Positions 3,189-58,679 of a stretch of DNA of 59,047 bases are shown here, piece by piece (positions within the stretch are counted from its first letter, which is position 1; every line of letters starts with the position of its first letter). The DNA comes from an uncultured Bacilli bacterium (GTDB taxonomy: Bacteria; Bacillota_I; Bacilli_A; RF39; UBA660), in assembly GCA_934096015.1 (NCBI GenBank), contig CAKOLD010000004.1, forward strand, positions 1 to 59,047. Reading direction: 5' to 3'. The notes beneath the pieces were generated by a model. The model had not been told where the DNA came from, made no database searches, and worked only from the letters and a program-made list of their open reading frames with translations. The position numbers and the translations under genes are program-made.

Positions 3189-3743
3189 ATGAACAAGGTA
3201 ATTTTTTTATATATAGATGGAGTCTTAAATGATATAAGAATAAAATTTAAAGAAGAAAGCGTAAATGTCATTAAAGAATTAATAAAAATATATAATGCTA
3301 AAGTAGTCATGATAACATCGTGGCAATTAAATGGTACTATAAATAGAAGAAAATATATTGCAAATAAATTAACAGAACAAGGGATATATAAAGTAGATTT
3401 TATTGAACCAAATTTTGAAGGAGGTTTTTTTGGTATAGATATACCAGATCGAGTATTGGGAATAATTGATTATTTAAAAAATCATAATGTATCAAGCTAT
3501 GTAATATTGGATGATGAGTATCATAATGACTATAGATTATTATGTTTAAATCATTATAGGACTTTGCCACTAAAAGGATTAACACGCAAAGACCTATCAA
3601 AAATATCATTTAAAAAAGTAAATTTGAACAACTTTAATTATGTAACCTATGAATATAGAAAAATGGATGAATATGAACAAGCAACAAACGATTTAATAAA
3701 AGTATTAAAAAAAGTTAATAATATACATAATTTTACAAATTAA
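3189..3743 (+). CDS. HAD-superfamily phosphatase-like protein, function unknown
   Basis: N-terminal IFLYIDGVLN (DxDG nucleophile motif), ITSW, and later YVILDDE, arranged as in small stand-alone HAD-like proteins. SD GGGGGA upstream. Confidence 0.5.
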   Translation: MNKVIFLYIDGVLNDIRIKFKEESVNVIKELIKIYNAKVVMITSWQLNGTINRRKYIANKLTEQGIYKVDFIEPNFEGGFFGIDIPDRVLGIIDYLKNHNVSSYVILDDEYHNDYRLLCLNHYRTLPLKGLTRKDLSKISFKKVNLNNFNYVTYEYRKMDEYEQATNDLIKVLKKVNNIHNFTN

Positions 3744-3808
3744 GTGTATATGAATAGTACTTTTTAAAAAAAAAATGATAAAATAATGCATAGAGAAAAG
3801 AGGTATTT

Positions 3809-4699
3809 ATGTATATAATTAATTTTATAAGAGGATTTTGTATGGCTCTGGCAGACAGTGTTCCAGGAGTATCTGGAGGAACAGTAGCTTTTATCTTAGG
3901 ATTCTATGACAAATTTATAACATCTCTTGATGATTTGGCAACTGGTTCTATGGAAAAGAAAAAAGAATCTTTAAAGTTTTTATTTAAAATAGGTATTGGT
4001 TGGATAGTTGGATTTGTTTTAGCAGTTTTAGTTCTAGGAAATCTATTTGAGAGTCATATATATCAAATTAGCTCACTATTTATAGGTTTTATAATTTTTG
4101 CTATTCCTATAATTATAAAAGAAGAGAAAGACTGCTTAAAAGGGAAATATTTAAATCTTATATTTTTTATAATTGGAATCGCTGTTGTTTGTGCAATAAC
4201 ATATTTTAATCCAATAGGAAGTGCTGAAACTAGTATTGATGTTAGTCACGTATCATTGAAATTAGGAATTTATACATTCCTAGTTGCTATGATTGCAATA
4301 TCAGCAATGGTATTGCCTGGAATAAGCGGATCAACACTTTTGTTAATATTTGGTTTATATATGCCAATAATTAATGCAATTAAAGAATTTTTACATTTCA
4401 ACTTATCATATATGCCTATTTTAATTATATTTGTTTTAGGTATTATAACTGGAATCTTATTAACAATAAAAATAATAAAAAAATCTATTGAAAATCATAG
4501 ATCAGCGATGATGTATTTAATTTTAGGACTAATGATTGGTTCAATATATGCAATTATAGAAGGTCCTAAAACTCTTGATATACCCCAAGCTGCATTAAGC
4601 TTTAAAACTTTTAGTATAATTTATTTTATAATTGGAGGATTAGTAATTATCGGAATGCAATTATTAAAAAATAAATTAGAAAAAGGAAAACAAGATTAA
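3809..4699 (+). CDS. DUF368 family polytopic membrane protein (PopT-type candidate undecaprenyl-phosphate translocase)
   Basis: Duplicated signature SVPGVSGGT and LPGISGST, with about 8 hydrophobic segments. This is typical DUF368 architecture. Confidence 0.8.
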   Translation: MYIINFIRGFCMALADSVPGVSGGTVAFILGFYDKFITSLDDLATGSMEKKKESLKFLFKIGIGWIVGFVLAVLVLGNLFESHIYQISSLFIGFIIFAIPIIIKEEKDCLKGKYLNLIFFIIGIAVVCAITYFNPIGSAETSIDVSHVSLKLGIYTFLVAMIAISAMVLPGISGSTLLLIFGLYMPIINAIKEFLHFNLSYMPILIIFVLGIITGILLTIKIIKKSIENHRSAMMYLILGLMIGSIYAIIEGPKTLDIPQAALSFKTFSIIYFIIGGLVIIGMQLLKNKLEKGKQD

Positions 4700-4701
4700 C
4701 A

Positions 4702-5046
4702 ATGATAAAATTTTTAAGAAGCTTCAAATATGCTTTTGAAGGTATTGTTAGTTCTATTAAAAGTGAAAGAAATGTAATAGTTCACTTTTTAATAATGATA
4801 TTAGTAATTATTTCAGGACTATATTTTCATATATCCAAAACAGAATGGTTAATATGTATTATTCTTTTTGGTCTTGTAATAAGTGCAGAATTAATGAATA
4901 CTGCTATAGAAACAACATTAGATTTATGTCATCCTGAAAAAAACGATAAAGTAAAATTAGCTAAAGATGTTGCTGCCGGATCAGTTCTCGTAACAGCTAT
5001 ATCTGCAGCAATTATAGGATTACTTATATTTATTCCTAAAATATAA
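4702..5046 (+). CDS. dgkA: Prokaryotic diacylglycerol kinase family protein (undecaprenol kinase type in Gram-positives)
   Basis: 114 aa with 3 TM segments. Motifs SERN..VH and AELMNTAIE plus a KD.AAG.V tail are typical of DgkA. Starts 2 nt after the DUF368 stop. Confidence 0.8.
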   Translation: MIKFLRSFKYAFEGIVSSIKSERNVIVHFLIMILVIISGLYFHISKTEWLICIILFGLVISAELMNTAIETTLDLCHPEKNDKVKLAKDVAAGSVLVTAISAAIIGLLIFIPKI

Positions 5047-49479: not shown

Positions 49480-51687
49480 ATGAAAAAAATTGAATTACTA
49501 GCTCCTGCGGGAAATAGAAAAATGCTTGAAGCAGCTATCCACAATGGAGCGGATGCCGTTTATTTATCTGGTAAATTATACGGTGCCAGAGCCTATGCCA
49601 ACAACTTTACTGAAGAAGAAATAATTGAAGCAATTAAATATGCTCATCTATATGGTGTAAAAATATTTGTAACTATAAATACAATAATTAAAGAACAAGA
49701 CGTTGATAATTTAATAGATTATGTCCGCATACTTCATGAAAATAATGTCGATGCCTTGATTATTCAAGATATTGGTATGATTGATTTATTACATAAAAAA
49801 TTTCCGAATTTAGTTTTACATGCTTCCACTCAGTGTCACAATCATAGCAATAAAAACATAAAACTTCTTAAATCTTTAGGAGTAAAGAGAATAATTTTAG
49901 CAAGAGAATTATCATTAAATGAAATTTCTAATTTAGATACTGATATAGAAAAAGAAATATTTGTTCATGGAGCTCTTTGTATATCTTATTCTGGTAACTG
50001 CTTAATGTCTAAAGAAATCTTAGATAGAAGTGGTAACGAAGGTAAATGTGCAGGATTATGCAGATTACCATACGATCTATATGAAAACAATAAAAAGATA
50101 GAAACTACCGGTAAATATCTTTTAAGCACCAAAGACTTATGCACCTTAAAAAATATAGATGATATTTTAAAATCAAATATAACGTCTTTAAAAATAGAAG
50201 GAAGAATGAAATCTCCAGAATACGTGGGATATACAACCAAAATATACAGAAAATATATTGATAACTACTACAAAGGTATTAAAAGCATCCCAACACCAGA
50301 GGAAATAGAAAAACTAAAATTACTATATAATAGAGAATTCACTAAAGGACATTTATTTAACGATAAAAATATTATAAATGATAAAACATCAAATCATATA
50401 GGAATACCTTTAGGAAAAATAATAGCATTAGGCAAAAAAATCAAAATAAAATTAGAATATGAATTAAATCAAGAAGATGCTATTAGATTTAATGAAAGTA
50501 ATAAAGGCATGTATATAAATTATTTGTACGATGAAAAAGATAATTTAATAAATCATGCTGAAAAAGGTGATATAGTATATGTTGATAATAAAGATAATAT
50601 TAGATCTTTAGATACGATTAATTTAACTATATCAAGCAAGTTACAAAAAGAAATTAATTTTTTTGATTATAAAAAAATACCAATAAAATTTATTGTTAAT
50701 GCTAAAGTTGGAAACCCCTTAGAAATATCTATAACAGACAATCATTACACATGCACTATAAAAGATGAAACAATTGAACTAGCTAATAATAATTGTACAG
50801 AAGCAAAAGAAATTATTCAAAAATTAAATAAATTAGGAACAACACCATTCTATTTAAAAGATTACGAAATAACGATAGATAATAACATCTTTATCCCATT
50901 ATCTAGAATCAATAATATTAGAAGAAATCTTGTAGAACAATTAATAGAATTAAGACAAGGACAAAAACAAAATATAGTTGAAAAGGAATATAATTGGATT
51001 CCAAGCAAAGAAAAATCAATAGACATTAACAATTCTTATTTAATAGAAAATATTGAACAATATAATTTAGTAAAAAATAAAGGGAACATTTATGTTGATA
51101 ACTTTGAACTTTTCAACAAACTTAAAAAAGAACCAAACGTCTATTTAAAATTAAATAGATTAAATACTAAAGAATATCAAAATACAAATTTGCTAGTTTC
51201 AGATACTAGTAACATTATTCAAGCAAAAAACAATAACGTTCATTCAGATACATACTTAAATATAACAAATTCATACGCAGTCAAACTACTAGAAGAACTT
51301 GGAGTAAAAAAAATAACATTATCTTCAGAATTAACTAAAAATGAAATAGAACTTATTGATAAAAATTTTCAAGAAAGATATAAACACAAACCAAATCTTC
51401 AAATATTCGCTTTTGGTAAATTAGAGTTAATGATTATGAAACACTGTATACCTGAAATGTATATTAGTAAAAATAATTGCACACTATGTAATTCTAATAA
51501 TAAATATGAATTAGTAGATAGAAATAATAAAAGATACACAATAAAAAAGAAATGTAAAATAAATAAAATATTAAGCTATAAAATAACAAATAGATTAGAA
51601 GAATTTAAAGATTATAAAATAAGTAAACTAATATCCCTAATAGATATAAGCGAATCTGAAAAAATTATTAAGGAAGTGATTAAATGA
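49480..51687 (+). CDS. Peptidase U32 family protein (long form with C-terminal extension)
   Basis: MKKIELLAPAGN..., AI.NGADAVY, U32 signature region E.FVHGALCISYSG.C. About 735 aa. ATG 49480 follows GGAGG. Confidence 0.85.
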   Translation: MKKIELLAPAGNRKMLEAAIHNGADAVYLSGKLYGARAYANNFTEEEIIEAIKYAHLYGVKIFVTINTIIKEQDVDNLIDYVRILHENNVDALIIQDIGMIDLLHKKFPNLVLHASTQCHNHSNKNIKLLKSLGVKRIILARELSLNEISNLDTDIEKEIFVHGALCISYSGNCLMSKEILDRSGNEGKCAGLCRLPYDLYENNKKIETTGKYLLSTKDLCTLKNIDDILKSNITSLKIEGRMKSPEYVGYTTKIYRKYIDNYYKGIKSIPTPEEIEKLKLLYNREFTKGHLFNDKNIINDKTSNHIGIPLGKIIALGKKIKIKLEYELNQEDAIRFNESNKGMYINYLYDEKDNLINHAEKGDIVYVDNKDNIRSLDTINLTISSKLQKEINFFDYKKIPIKFIVNAKVGNPLEISITDNHYTCTIKDETIELANNNCTEAKEIIQKLNKLGTTPFYLKDYEITIDNNIFIPLSRINNIRRNLVEQLIELRQGQKQNIVEKEYNWIPSKEKSIDINNSYLIENIEQYNLVKNKGNIYVDNFELFNKLKKEPNVYLKLNRLNTKEYQNTNLLVSDTSNIIQAKNNNVHSDTYLNITNSYAVKLLEELGVKKITLSSELTKNEIELIDKNFQERYKHKPNLQIFAFGKLELMIMKHCIPEMYISKNNCTLCNSNNKYELVDRNNKRYTIKKKCKINKILSYKITNRLEEFKDYKISKLISLIDISESEKIIKEVIK

Positions 51688-52379
51688 ATTTTATTATAGT
51701 CGAAGATGATCCAAAAACCGAAAAAGAAATAGAAAATATAATTACAAAAGAAATGTTTAAGAATAACAAAGAATATAAAATTAGCAAATTAACAAAATCT
51801 TGCAAGGGATTAAAAGAAATTATCAAAAATGATATTGAAAGTAAAATATTTATTTTAGATATTGCTTTAGAAGGTAAAATATCTGGAATTGATATAGCTA
51901 AAGAAATTAGAACAGAAGATTGGGATAGTGAAATAATATTCGTTACTAGTCATGATAGAATGTTTGAAACTGTTTATAAGACAATTTATAAAGTATTTGA
52001 TTTTATAGAAAAGTTTGATAATCTAGATAAAAGATTATCAAAAGATATAAGTGAAATAGTTAAAATGGAACATGATAACGGCAAATTTAAGTATTCTAAT
52101 AATAAAATAACTCTTCAAATATTTTATAAAGACATTCTTTATGTGTATAGAGATACACAAGAAAGAAAGCTTGTAATTGTTACTAATAACAATGAATTTA
52201 AAGTTAATATGACTTTAGAAGAAATAAAACAGAGTCTAGACTCAAGATTCTTTCAAACACATAGAGCATGTATTGTAAATAATGATAAAGTAAATTTATA
52301 TAATTGGAATGAATGTTTTTTTGAATTATGTAATGGAGTTAAAGTTCCATTACTTTCAAGAACATATAAAGAGGATTAA
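51684..52379 (+). CDS. LytTR-family response regulator (AgrA-like)
   Basis: Receiver IIVEDD...ILDIAL (phospho-acceptor Asp)...VTSH. The C-terminal LytTR domain is marked by the segment ILYVYRD...FFQTHRACIVN. ATGA overlap with the U32 gene. Confidence 0.85.
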   Translation: MNFIIVEDDPKTEKEIENIITKEMFKNNKEYKISKLTKSCKGLKEIIKNDIESKIFILDIALEGKISGIDIAKEIRTEDWDSEIIFVTSHDRMFETVYKTIYKVFDFIEKFDNLDKRLSKDISEIVKMEHDNGKFKYSNNKITLQIFYKDILYVYRDTQERKLVIVTNNNEFKVNMTLEEIKQSLDSRFFQTHRACIVNNDKVNLYNWNECFFELCNGVKVPLLSRTYKED

Positions 52380-52381
52380 TC

Positions 52382-53656
52382 ATGATACAAAAATTAGTAC
52401 CACTCATTTGTACAATCCTACAAGGATTTGTATATATTAAAGTTTATGAAAAAATAGCTTATAAAAAATTTAATAAAAATAGAATAATTTATCTATTTAT
52501 TATAAGTGTTATTATGGTAATAAATAATTTATATAGTGCTTTACCATATAAATTAATACTTTCTATTTTATTAACATTTGCTCTCTTAAAAGTTATATTT
52601 AAAGATTCTACTAAAACTACGATTTTTTATGTAGTAATAATTACAATTGTATCTATATTTTTAGAAATATTATTTTCAATCCTCTTTCCAGCAATCATAA
52701 AAAACTTAGACGATTTAAATAATAATCAATTTATAAAAATTATTTATAGTATAATAAATTGTTTAGCCATTTACCATGTATTATCGGTAAAACTTGTAAG
52801 GAAGGCCATCGATTACTTATATAAAACCTATGTTAATATATTAAATTTTTACACACTTACAGGATTTTGCATTTTAATATTATGCTTAGGTGTATATTTT
52901 TATGCATCTAACCTTCATAATGTATATATCTACTTTTTAGTAATTTCTTTATTTATCATGTTTGGAATTTTAATCTATAATACAGTTAAGAAAAGTTATT
53001 CCAATAAAATATTAACAATTAAAAATGAGCACTTAGAAGAATCAAATGTTATTTACAAACAGATATCAGAGGACTATAGTGAATTGAAACACAATTTAAC
53101 AAATGACTTAATTAGTGTTAAAAGTTTACTACCGAAAAAAGATCAAGCAATTATAAATACAATAATAAAAAAATATGAAAAGAATTTTCATTGGTTAACA
53201 AATATTAATGATGTTCCTTCAGGTATTCAAGGATTATTTTATATTAAGCTTACCAGTATAAAAAATGAAAATATAAAATTTAGAGTTAATTATAAATTGG
53301 ATTTTGATATTAAAGATGTAGTAAAACCAAAAGACTATCATCATATTTGTGAAATACTAGGAATTTGGATTGATAACGCAATTGAAGCTGTAGAAAATTG
53401 TAATGAAAAAATAATATTAGCAGAAATAGACGGCAACAAAGAAAACTTTATTATAAAAATAACTAATACTTTTAAAGGAAATATGGATTTAGATAAACTG
53501 GGAACTAAAAAGTACAGTACCAAAAATCGTAATTCTGGATACGGATTAAATTATGTTCAAAAGGTTTCAGGAAAAAGAATCAAAATAGACTATAATATTA
53601 TTAATAATTTATTTATAAGTAACTTAATATATTTAAATAAACAAAATAAAAAATAG
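52382..53656 (+). CDS. AgrC-like (HPK10-type) sensor histidine kinase
   Basis: 6-7 N-terminal TM segments, H-box SELKHNLTNDL, N-box WIDNAIEA, G-box NSGYGLNYV. Confidence 0.8.
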   Translation: MIQKLVPLICTILQGFVYIKVYEKIAYKKFNKNRIIYLFIISVIMVINNLYSALPYKLILSILLTFALLKVIFKDSTKTTIFYVVIITIVSIFLEILFSILFPAIIKNLDDLNNNQFIKIIYSIINCLAIYHVLSVKLVRKAIDYLYKTYVNILNFYTLTGFCILILCLGVYFYASNLHNVYIYFLVISLFIMFGILIYNTVKKSYSNKILTIKNEHLEESNVIYKQISEDYSELKHNLTNDLISVKSLLPKKDQAIINTIIKKYEKNFHWLTNINDVPSGIQGLFYIKLTSIKNENIKFRVNYKLDFDIKDVVKPKDYHHICEILGIWIDNAIEAVENCNEKIILAEIDGNKENFIIKITNTFKGNMDLDKLGTKKYSTKNRNSGYGLNYVQKVSGKRIKIDYNIINNLFISNLIYLNKQNKK

Positions 53657-53677
53657 AGAATCAAATCTCTATTTTTT
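53648..53677. terminator. Bidirectional terminator shared by the kinase gene (+) and the agrD-like gene (-)
   Basis: AAAAAATAGAGA atcaaa TCTCTATTTTTT. The stem overlaps the kinase stop codon. Confidence 0.75.
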
Positions 53678-53679
53678 AA

Positions 53680-53808
53680 TTAGTCTTGTAAACTTTCAGG
53701 CATTTCTGGTTCGTCAAACACCCACCAATAAGTAGCAGTAGTACTAGTACTTGCTACAGTTGAACCAATTGCAGATAAAATATTTGCTAAAGCTGATAAC
53801 ATATTCAT
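53680..53808 (-). CDS. agrD: AgrD-like autoinducing-peptide precursor (Cys-free)
   Basis: Not in the ORF track (42 codons). Hand translation: MNMLSALANILSAIGSTVASTSTTATYWWVFDEPEMPESLQD. AAAGGAG SD; the third codon ATG (53802) has the better spacing. Lies 30 nt downstream of agrB. The acidic tail DEPEMPESL matches the staphylococcal AgrD tail pattern DE(P/V)EVP(K/E)EL. Confidence 0.7.
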   Translation of the reverse strand: MNMLSALANILSAIGSTVASTSTTATYWWVFDEPEMPESLQD

Positions 53809-53838
53809 GCTCCTTTCATTGTTTAAATATATCTAATA

Positions 53839-54447
53839 TCATTTAAACCAATTGTAATAATATGGCTGTTTAAACAATTTATACATCACAGGGCTAATCA
53901 TAAATGCTTGACACACTATAACAGCTAATATCATCTTACTAATAGTAGTAGGAACAAAGAAGCTAATTATAAAATAAGTAACAAGTAAACTGGAGGATAC
54001 TATTTTACATTTTAGTCTTCTTTGCGGGTTTTTAATCGGTCTTTTTTTAGTGCCTGCAGGACTAAACAGTAAAAAGGATACAAAACTCATAATCATTAAA
54101 ACGATATGCCAAATTTTGTTTATCTTAATAGCACTAAATAACCAAGGCAGCAATATAAAAGTTATTATACTTAATATAAGGCATTCAGTACTATTATTTG
54201 CATGAAATCCGAAGCTAAAACTCCTTATAGGAATATAAAATAACATGAAGAACAGTGTATCTTTAAAATGACCTAAAAAATATGCAATAATTAATATTAT
54301 CAAAGTTTTAGATAAGGTTGAATACATGCCTTCTAAAGCATATCTAATTTCAGCCAATTTAACTTTATCAATACTTTGTTCACGTTCTATTAAATTCATG
54401 CAACCATTTACTACTTTGTTTTTAATCTTACATTCTCCTTTGACCAT
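53839..54447 (-). CDS. agrB: AgrB-like membrane cysteine endopeptidase (AIP maturation)
   Basis: Polytopic protein. Catalytic-type His and Cys have the AgrB spacing (FGFHANNSTEC: H-x6-C), followed by PAGTKKRPI, as in the staphylococcal AgrB segment APAATKKKPI. Start is uncertain (54447 gives about 202 aa; 54399 and 54516 are alternatives); no strong SD at any of them. Confidence 0.85.
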   Translation of the reverse strand: MVKGECKIKNKVVNGCMNLIEREQSIDKVKLAEIRYALEGMYSTLSKTLIILIIAYFLGHFKDTLFFMLFYIPIRSFSFGFHANNSTECLILSIITFILLPWLFSAIKINKIWHIVLMIMSFVSFLLFSPAGTKKRPIKNPQRRLKCKIVSSSLLVTYFIISFFVPTTISKMILAVIVCQAFMISPVMYKLFKQPYYYNWFK

Positions 54448-54680
54448 GTTCACTATAACACAAGATAGCTTTATAAAACGTGTCTTCTGTCTAAAGACAA
54501 GACTTTTATGTCTCAAATTTTAAAAATGCAATAAAAAGTACCAACTTTTAACAATTCGAACGCATTTTAAGCCATTTCAAACATAAAGTCGAATTTTGAC
54601 GACTTAATTTGATAGACTTGAATGGTCAGTTATGATATTTTTGTATTGTAGTATATGATTTAAGAAGGAAAGGTGAATTT

Positions 54681-58070: not shown

Positions 58071-58203
58071 GCTACTTACAATTTTTAGGCAATTTAACTT
58101 CAAAAAAGGTGTTTAGATAAGTTTTAGATAAGTTTTTTTACTAGCTTTAACAAAATGCAAGTATATTGTATGATATAATAATATGTAAAAGTTGGTGATT
58201 ATA

Positions 58204-58679
58204 ATGAATTACAAAATAATTGATATAAAACATCAAGAAAAAGAAAAATTATATAAATTGTTACAATATTCCTTATATGATGGTTCGCAATATATTGATA
58301 ATGATGTAAATGAGGAATGTATATTTGAATATAGATGGTTTGATAATTACTTTACTGATGAGGATCGAAGTGCATATTTTATTAAAAGTGGAAAACATAT
58401 GTAGAAATGGTTATGGTAAATGAAAATTTAAAATTTAATAAAAATGGCAAGTGTATCGCCGAATTCTTAATAATGCCAAGATTTAGGAGAAATCATATTG
58501 GGAAAAGAGTCGCTTACGAAATATTTGAAAAATTTAGGGGTGATTGGGAGGTCCAACCAATGGGAAACAATCCTATTGCATATTTATTTTGGAAAAATAT
58601 AATATCAGAATATACTAATGGAAATTATATAACTAAAAATGATGGAATAGAGGATGTATTCATTTTTAATAATAAATAG
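58204..58679 (+). pseudogene. GNAT-fold acetyltransferase-like gene split by a frameshift (ORFs 58192..58404 and 58407..58679)
   Basis: The two adjacent ORFs read as the N- and C-terminal halves of one small protein: ...DRSAYFIKSGKHM* then, in another frame, MVMVNEN...IAEFLIMPRFRRNHIGKRVAYEIF..F.G.WEV. The frame changes near 58400-58407. Confidence 0.5.

Follow-up and report, generated by a model that had tools for sequence, protein, structure and literature searches.

Autoinducing peptides (AIPs) of agr-type quorum-sensing systems are taught to be cysteine thiolactones or, rarely, serine lactones, and mining pipelines and synthetic-bioinformatic libraries seek Cys or Ser (PMC11953309). Which residue, then, closes the ring when the precursor has no cysteine? 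The question is raised by an agr-type locus in contig CAKOLD010000004.1 (assembly GCA_934096015.1) of an uncultured Bacilli bacterium, referred to hereafter, over its whole length of 59,047 nt, as the window, in which the agrD candidate directly downstream of agrB encodes a peptide devoid of Cys. A preliminary description of the locus had put a Tyr at the ring position and had named three possible products, that is, a six-residue Thr macrolactone, a head-to-tail or otherwise non-canonical cycle, and a linear peptide. The comparative data presented here indicate that a Thr, six residues before the AgrB recognition tail, sits where most relatives have their Cys, and favour the first of the three.

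The agrD open reading frame (ORF) is located at positions 53680–53808 on the minus strand and consists of 42 codons plus a stop codon, with an ATG start. Its translation, MNMLSALANILSAIGSTVASTSTTATYWWVFDEPEMPESLQD, is exactly as described previously and contains no Cys. A gap of 30 nt separates it from the stop codon of agrB (53839–53841) on the same strand, and a Shine-Dalgarno sequence read from the DNA, GAAAGGAG, lies at 53810–53817 (minus strand), so that both of these elements of the preliminary description were confirmed. Between the GGAG motif and the first ATG there is a single nucleotide, whereas the distance to the second ATG (53800–53802) is 7 nt, which makes the shorter, 40-aa form beginning MLSALANIL the likelier product; the second ATG is therefore probably the true start, and 40 aa is also the length picked by gene callers for P0001, a near-identical relative. 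The peptide has the layout of an AgrD, with a leader, a core and an acidic follower carrying the AgrB recognition motif. It was matched above cut-off by TIGR04223 (quorum_AgrD, named ‘AgrD family cyclic lactone autoinducer peptide’ in NCBIfam; 27.0 bits, cut-off 19, E = 3.7e-6), which upholds its identification as an AgrD pro-peptide without Cys. Of the Pfam models that had been proposed as a check, the one for AgrB gave a strong match to the neighbouring gene (PF04647, E = 1.4e-35) and the one for AgrD (PF05931) fell just short, with 22.2 bits, 0.5 under its cut-off of 22.7. When the 2014 six-frame segments of the window were scored with a home-built family hidden Markov model (HMM), the ORF came first at E = 7e-18, the runner-up being a 19-residue fragment at E = 0.008. 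Taken at the level of sequence families, these matches indicate that the ORF is a genuine AgrD-family precursor, far beyond chance. At the cyclisation position, where canonical AgrDs carry Cys or rarely Ser, the aligned residue is Thr, and the product is best classified by its sequence family, as an AgrD in which the nucleophile is variant, and not among the canonical precursors of (thio)lactones.

The position of the nucleophile was read from relatives of the peptide. A query with the single peptide in 15 billion proteins returned one relative only, P0001, and the family became visible only after loci with AgrB relatives had been fetched, the small ORFs downstream of these genes read and profile searches made from the peptides collected. 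In more than 300 related peptides of uncultured gut Bacilli the nucleophile stands six residues before D-E-P, not five. Among the AgrB-neighbour ORFs, seven have the pattern G-C-x-[WL]-[WF]-x-x followed by DEP, and mostly then by KAL, with the Cys six residues before D-E-P, and two carry a Thr at this same position −6 (TWLWSA followed by DEPKDCPKSLLK, and TWFWFS followed by DEPKNCPQSLIK). Alignments made with MAFFT and with hmmalign alike place Thr26 of the window peptide in the single conserved Cys column. The codon of this residue, ACT, is at 53731–53733 (minus strand; Thr24 in the 40-aa form), the core T-Y-W-W-V-F, predicted to form a six-residue macrocycle, at 53716–53733, and the follower DEPEMPESLQD at 53683–53715. 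The window's own subfamily comprises about 100 clusters of 35–40 aa ending in [TS]-[GA]-C-x4-F and then DEPEMPESL; at position −6 of this clade (n = 98) there are 86 Cys, 8 Ser and 2 Thr (the window and P0001), and in 2 further peptides the Cys is shifted by one residue. In a sister clade, with G-C-x-W-W-x-x followed by [DE]EPKAL, the Cys is six residues before DEP in all 102 classified peptides. One relative, P0114, reads G-CYWWVF followed by DEPESKSLFDD, that is, it has the ring residues of the window's TYWWVF with Cys replacing Thr.

The flanks of this column are equally regular. The spacing of six residues between nucleophile and follower is the same in >95% of the aligned relatives, and D-E-P is invariant in alignment A1; together with the occurrence of the same tail in about 100 related clusters, this bears out the earlier view that the follower is an AgrB recognition tail of textbook form. 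An invariant D, E, P, second P, S and L (D-E-P ... P-x-S-L) is common to the four Thr-type peptides of alignment A2. Cys- and Ser-type AgrDs of the lineage (P0130, P0114 and P0125, the latter with SFFGFF) show 46–68% identity, with the same leader and the same Phe-DEPEMPESL follower, and P0130 bears the NCBI name ‘cyclic lactone autoinducer peptide [Bacilli bacterium]’. We are highly confident that Thr26 occupies the nucleophile position. The assignment of the ring position to Tyr resulted from applying the staphylococcal count of five residues to a family in which the one conserved Cys precedes DEP by six residues. With a hydroxyl nucleophile in the canonical place, the peptide is thus less anomalous than had been claimed, and there is no need to postulate head-to-tail or other non-canonical cyclisation. 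Likewise, the label ‘unannotated’ holds for the ORF track supplied with the sequence but not for the family, since NCBI gives related peptides, including the Thr-type relative P0360, the family name ‘cyclic lactone autoinducer peptide’. The expectation that orthologues would conserve the critical features beside agrB was borne out for the Thr position (as Cys, Ser or Thr) and for the DEPEMPESL tail, but not for the Tyr.

Other candidates were tried and rejected. Tyr27 is the first ring residue after the nucleophile, and its column is hypervariable (I/W/F/V/L/A/Y/M). The Thr residues at −8 and −9, which would give a larger ring like that of the enterococcal peptide GBAP, occupy positions where Thr/Ser is equally conserved in Cys-type peptides, and these positions therefore belong to the leader/core junction. 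A separate AgrD with Cys or Ser as the real substrate, a possibility raised in the preliminary description, was sought with the family HMM and none was found in the 59-kb window; the next match is the 19-residue fragment mentioned above, which is bounded by stop codons and lies within a U32 peptidase gene on the opposite strand.

Is the Thr a maintained variant or a lesion? For a census, 1.84 billion cluster representatives were scanned exhaustively by HMMER with a Ser/Thr-type profile, giving 156 hits at E ≤ 1e-3, of which 149, each representing a 50%-identity cluster, were aligned. The nucleophile column of these 149 holds 97 Cys, 33 Ser, 17 Thr, 1 Gly and 1 Val, the Thr fraction being biased upward by the query profile. 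That is, 147 of 149 representatives have Cys, Ser or Thr, which suggests that the column tolerates only residues able to make a (thio)ester. No core Cys is present in 13 of the 17 Thr representatives. Ten Thr-type representatives were followed through their 90%-identity clusters, where the Thr is invariant and the ring residues vary, as in TYMWVM/TLIWVM/TIVWVM, in TIIYVF/TYIFFF/TIVFIF/TIIFVF and in TWWLVF/TWWFLF/TYWFLF/TWWFMF/TWWFFF. A fixed Thr amid varying ring residues has the appearance of classic pherotype diversification around a fixed catalytic position. The same pattern is found at short range. The near-identical strain that encodes P0001 (locus L024) differs from the window by 32 substitutions in 982 aligned nt, and 5 of the 32 fall within the 18-nt ring region (Fisher p = 1.7e-4); these change the Thr codon synonymously (ACT to ACA), replace Tyr by Phe (TAT to TTC) and Phe by Tyr (TTT to TAT), and leave Val unaltered (GTG to GTT). 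Across loci the Thr codons are ACT or ACA, and the codons of Ser variants are TCA, one step from a Thr codon, or AGT, one step from a Cys codon. Clearly, as far as comparison of sequences can tell, the Thr is maintained and is not a lesion, and the Thr class is real.

Separately, the Gly in the census column belongs to P0242 (MKFLAMILSAIGATTANMGTHGGIYWVLDEPEMPKSLLEK), whose six-residue core has no Cys, Ser or Thr. It is the sole such exception in the 149; the allele may be dead, or the register may have shifted.

The loci share a chromosomal setting as well. The gene order secA-hpf-csp-agrB-agrD (csp being a cold-shock gene), with a converging pair of histidine kinase and response regulator genes, is common to the window and to every related locus whose flanks were present, and a small ORF right after agrB on the same strand recurs in 20 or more related loci, which come from metagenome-assembled genomes of uncultured gut ‘Bacilli’ (rabbit, Hadza and other samples). 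SecA of the window is 69–75% identical to that of the Thr- and Ser-type loci (L002, L004, L005 and L018–L023) versus 63–70% for Cys-clade loci, and the regulator is 47–56% versus 29–36% identical, respectively, so that the window locus is placed nearest to the hydroxyl-type loci by both proteins. The Thr type is also well represented: P0124 is encoded on at least 24 contigs of up to 699 kb, and of the 35 collection blocks in which P0377 was indexed, those with the longest contigs, 24 in number, were read. Exchange of the nucleophile can be followed between close relatives. Locus L014, with a Cys (CFAVIF), and locus L012, with a Ser (SFLAIF), have AgrB proteins 72% identical, and L005, whose nucleophile is a Ser (SWYWCS), nests inside the TWLWSA/TWFWFS group together with the Thr loci L002 and L018. 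Switching from thiolactone to lactone thus seems, to judge from these alignments, to be a routine evolutionary event in this gut-Bacilli lineage. The regulators of L012 and L013 are 81% identical to that of L014, and the nucleophile codons, AGT for Ser and TGT for Cys, are one nucleotide apart.

Two of the related loci are visibly damaged. A second metagenome contig (L001, positions 1–1974; ENA ERZ27287000 k141_241298) has an agrD identical to that of the window at the protein level, next to an agrB of which only the last 85 codons remain, preceded by an unrelated 176-aa ORF; its identity to the window stops inside the terminator hairpin and a transposase-like ORF follows. This contig is either a copy of the locus rearranged by an insertion sequence and probably dead, or a chimeric assembly. 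In a TWFWFS strain (L020, positions 3634–4961) the kinase is split into ORFs of 304 and 130 aa, compared with an intact 423 aa in the sister loci L018 and L019. The receptor has apparently been lost in this strain, recalling the agr-defective variants common in staphylococci.

Starting from the family membership, gene context, alignment register, conservation of the Thr and variability of the ring residues, a pathway can be proposed in which the cleavage site, formation of the Thr ester, ring size, N-terminal trimming and signalling are predictions. If the pathway runs like its staphylococcal homologue, AgrD would be brought to the membrane by its amphipathic leader (PMC8251862, PMC12312760). 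AgrB, through His82 and Cys89, would recognise DEPEMPESLQD, cut between Phe31 and Asp32 and form an acyl-enzyme thioester on Phe31; attack of this thioester by the hydroxyl of Thr26 would then yield cyclo-(Thr-Tyr-Trp-Trp-Val-Phe), closed by an ester at Thr O-gamma. A peptidase would strip the leader, and the kinase would sense the secreted peptide, with the LytTR regulator feeding back on transcription. If the leader were trimmed right to the Thr, an O-to-N acyl shift of the ester could produce a head-to-tail lactam, in parallel with the S-to-N shift shown for clostridial six-residue AIPs. On balance we consider it probable that the window locus makes, via AgrB, a six-residue Thr-ester macrocycle or a lactam rearranged from it, in keeping with the Thr macrolactone that was among the products first named.

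Several points weigh against this interpretation. The argument for a Thr macrolactone is wholly comparative, and AgrB is not known to use Thr; a secondary alcohol is, moreover, a poorer nucleophile than the thiol of Cys or the hydroxyl of Ser. The AgrB of the window is very divergent, with 33–44% identity to all relatives, and in its S-P-A-G-T region it reads PAGT (54043–54054) where all 15 relatives compared have PADT, a motif whose Asp is otherwise invariant in the AgrBs of the lineage. The upward bias of the Thr fraction in the census counts here too. Peptides of the window type are rare, being represented in 15 billion proteins only by the cluster of P0001 and the rearranged contig L001, and a scan of metagenome DNA for Thr-x5-DEPEMPE (ACN N15 GAY GAR CCN GAR ATG CCN GAR) recovered none, its 37 matches all being chance occurrences inside unrelated, mostly high-GC genes. 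Finally, 95 of 98 peptides of the DEPEMPESL clade have a Phe at −1, and this nearly invariant residue could be a recognition element rather than part of the signal, in which case the ring would have five residues; ring size is the least secure step of the mechanism.

That Thr26 is the nucleophile of such a five-residue ring, with AgrB cutting before the Phe to release cyclo-(T-Y-W-W-V) from a follower F-DEPEMPESLQD, is in our estimation unlikely. S. aureus AgrB cleaves immediately before D-E, and by homology the same cut would be expected here. The residue at −1, recognition-like as its conservation looks in this clade, is variable in sister clades (A/V/L/I/C/S/M/Y) and changes from Phe to Tyr in P0001 alongside other ring residues, as expected for a signal residue; and five-residue rings, by far the commonest ones (PMC12312760, PMC4916163), are not universal, the AIPs from C. 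acetobutylicum and from R. cellulolyticum having six-residue rings (PMC4916163, PMC10301443, PMC8251862). A somewhat different question is whether an ester would persist. O-to-N acyl shifts at N-terminal Ser and Thr esters are well-known peptide chemistry, and the final signal might be a homodetic, head-to-tail cyclic hexapeptide, the Thr ester being transient or the amine attacking the thioester directly. The clostridial peptide CWFWSY, which has six residues and no N-terminal extension, is such a lactam, derived by S-to-N shift from a cryptic thiolactone, and the authors expressly leave open what becomes of Ser-lactone AIPs that carry no N-terminal extension (PMC8251862). Staphylococcal and enterococcal AIPs, however, keep exocyclic tails that block the shift, and direct aminolysis would give no reason for a nucleophile column restricted to Cys, Ser and Thr. 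We regard a lactam as the final product as fairly unlikely.

It is quite improbable that the product is linear, with AgrB acting only as an exporter and as a protease that removes the follower, the acyl-enzyme being hydrolysed and the Trp-rich peptide ending in TYWWVF serving as a linear signal or as no signal at all. Thr is a weak nucleophile and no Thr-cyclised AIP was found in the literature searched, both of which would fit this outcome, but the column would then not be limited to Cys, Ser and Thr (147/149), nor would the Thr stay fixed through synonymous changes amid diversifying neighbours, and, in the systems studied, linear analogues of AIPs show no activity (PMC12312760). Least probable by far, indeed barely credible, is that the locus is decaying, with the exchange of Cys for Thr a loss-of-function event in the disappearance of a quorum-sensing system. 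The high divergence of the window AgrB with its unusual PAGT motif, the truncated agrB and adjoining transposase next to the same agrD in L001, and the split kinase of the related strain L020 could be taken as signs of decay; the four genes of the window are, however, intact and equipped with a Shine-Dalgarno sequence and a terminator, Thr-type loci are numerous and syntenic, on dozens of contigs from different samples and with intact AgrB, kinase and regulator, and the Thr is conserved across lineages at about 70% SecA identity. Returning to the Thr-ester macrocycle, a broader proposal can be made tentatively, as one that may well not hold: the AgrBs of the whole lineage might use Thr as a nucleophile, giving a third AIP chemotype, a beta-methyl-branched six-residue depsipeptide that coexists and interconverts with the Cys and Ser types at one orthologous locus, and whose ester, if there were no N-terminal extension, would be a cryptic intermediate on the way, by enzyme-primed O-to-N ‘threonine ligation’, to a head-to-tail cyclic hexapeptide.

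How does the predicted product compare with known AIPs? Reviews and primary papers, a set that includes a 2025 primer, a 2025 large-scale RiPP survey of the human microbiome and work on clostridial AIPs, name only Cys or Ser at the cyclisation position (PMC8251862, PMC12312760, PMC11953309, PMC4916163). Thr as the AgrD nucleophile, or a Thr-cyclised AIP, was not found in the full-text literature searched, where subscription journals are thinly covered and an earlier mention is possible. Ser lactones are established for the S. pseudintermedius/intermedius AIP and for E. faecalis GBAP, which is made from FsrD (PMC12312760, PMC8251862). Like these, the window system has an AgrD-family precursor, an AgrB-family protease and a side-chain hydroxyl at the cyclisation position, from which an ester is predicted; it differs in that the hydroxyl belongs to Thr, a secondary alcohol with a beta-methyl group, that it is known from sequence alone, that its predicted ring has six residues as against five in S. 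pseudintermedius and nine in GBAP, and that its host belongs to an uncultured gut Bacilli lineage. Rings of six residues are documented for R6T0 of C. acetobutylicum (PMC10301443, PMC4916163) and for Rc-AIP1 (CWFWSY) of R. cellulolyticum (PMC8251862), in both of which, as in the window peptide with its inferred scissile bond, the stretch that begins with the nucleophile and ends just ahead of the follower is six residues long. The resemblance to Rc-AIP1 extends to an aromatic, Trp-rich core (TYWWVF in the window, TWFWFS and TWLWSA in relatives), and in the clostridial six-residue loci, too, the kinase/regulator genes are transcribed separately from agrBD (PMC10301443, PMC8251862, PMC4916163). 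Unlike the window peptide, R6T0 and Rc-AIP1 use Cys, Rc-AIP1 ending as a lactam after the S-to-N shift, and, in a further difference from the clostridial systems, no LanM-like gene was called in the fetched flanks of Thr-type loci.

With staphylococcal AgrD the window peptide shares the tripartite arrangement of leader, core and follower, the position of agrD directly downstream of agrB, and an AgrB with His-x6-Cys. The staphylococcal tail has the form D-E-x-E-x-P-x-E-L, which the window's DEPEMPESL resembles. In contrast to the staphylococcal system, the peptide has no Cys, its nucleophile precedes the follower by six rather than five residues, the kinase and regulator genes converge on agrD instead of forming part of an agrBDCA operon, and no RNAIII-like feature was identified. 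The closest likeness is to the Cys- and Ser-type AgrDs of its own lineage (P0130, P0114 and P0125), with the same leader, the same [TS]-[GA]-X entry into the core, the same follower and, wherever a flank was available, the same chromosomal site by csp-hpf-secA; only the nucleophile, Thr as opposed to Cys or Ser, and the hypervariable ring residues differ.

What is familiar here is an AgrD family member that is ordinary by sequence, in an ordinary agr locus; what is new is a Thr at the cyclisation position that is recurrent, conserved and missed by prediction rules based on Cys and Ser. The step from a Ser to a Thr hydroxyl is conservative and an NCBI HMM already names such peptides, which limits the novelty. 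If a conserved Thr class is borne out, the substrate scope of AgrB would extend to a secondary alcohol, current AIP mining would skip or mis-predict a set of gut-commensal signals, and a natural allelic series of Cys, Ser and Thr would exist at one orthologous locus. Such a series could be used to probe the effect of the nucleophile on signal stability (ester versus thioester, and propensity for acyl shifts) and on receptor specificity.

The remainder of the window locus is in agreement with an agr system. agrB occupies 53839–54447 on the minus strand and encodes 202 aa from the ATG at 54447, or at minimum 186 aa from 54399, the longer form fitting the 196–203 aa of its relatives. Its catalytic dyad, which the preliminary description had already recognised, is encoded by CAT (54202–54204) and TGC (54181–54183), corresponding to His82 and Cys89 in the 202-aa numbering, and is conserved in every AgrB compared: the His and Cys, with their six-residue spacing, are invariant in a 10-sequence alignment and present in all 16 proteins aligned in a wider set. 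The dyad of S. aureus AgrB is His77/Cys84. On the plus strand, convergent with agrD and at the same position in all related loci, lies a gene for an AgrC-like sensor histidine kinase of 424 aa (52382–53656; HATPase_c_5, 5e-11), preceded by one for an AgrA-like LytTR response regulator of 231 aa (51684–52379; LytTR 1.2e-13, Response_reg 3e-10). The kinase gave a weak full-length match to the AgrC equivalog model, far under cut-off, and the regulator matched quorum_RR_AgrA at 9e-18, likewise under the equivalog cut-off. The two are therefore classified by sequence as AgrC and AgrA homologues, not as equivalogs. An HPK10-type kinase (HATPase_c_5) and a LytTR regulator adjoin agrBD, as in pairs of the AgrC/AgrA type, and the window holds a complete agr-type quorum-sensing locus, with agrB-agrD and the convergent kinase and regulator genes.

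The agrBD unit probably ends at an intrinsic terminator, an A/U-rich hairpin with a U-run at 53647–53678 (minus strand), 3′ of agrD and overlapping the 3′ end of the kinase gene. The hairpin has a folding energy of −16.1 kcal/mol (z = −5.9), and 0 of 200 shuffled sequences folded as well; the GC content of the window is 24.5%.

A search of the Protein Data Bank with the window AgrB found no solved relative, and there is therefore no structural handle on nucleophile selection. Three AgrB positions correlate with clade. Directly behind the catalytic Cys, 6 of 7 Thr/Ser-clade proteins carry Trp and 9 of 9 of the Cys clade Leu, the window having Leu (54178–54180); two residues past an invariant Arg, Phe or Tyr is found in the Thr/Ser clade and Pro in 8 of 9 Cys-clade proteins, the window resembling the Thr/Ser clade; and in alignment column 75 the Thr/Ser clade has Tyr and most others Phe, the window again being like the Thr/Ser clade. 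These positions could reflect nucleophile choice or mere phylogenetic signal, and were not used as evidence.

The intergenic region upstream of agrB (54448–54680, minus strand) is presumed to contain the agr promoter. It includes, within 54472–54520 and 54561–54591, a 15-nt imperfect palindrome (54472–54486/54494–54508) and two weak pairs of 10-nt direct repeats, imperfect and with a 21-bp spacing, GTTTGAAATG/GTTCGAATTG and TTGAGACATA/TTTAGACAGA. A spacing of 21 bp is typical of LytTR boxes. In the search for a promoter or LytTR boxes upstream of agrB, repeats and palindrome scored no better than shuffled controls, and they are given here as candidates only. Elsewhere in the window, at 58192–58679, two ORFs of 70 and 90 aa on the same strand, with one stop codon between them and no Pfam match, may represent a split or frameshifted gene.

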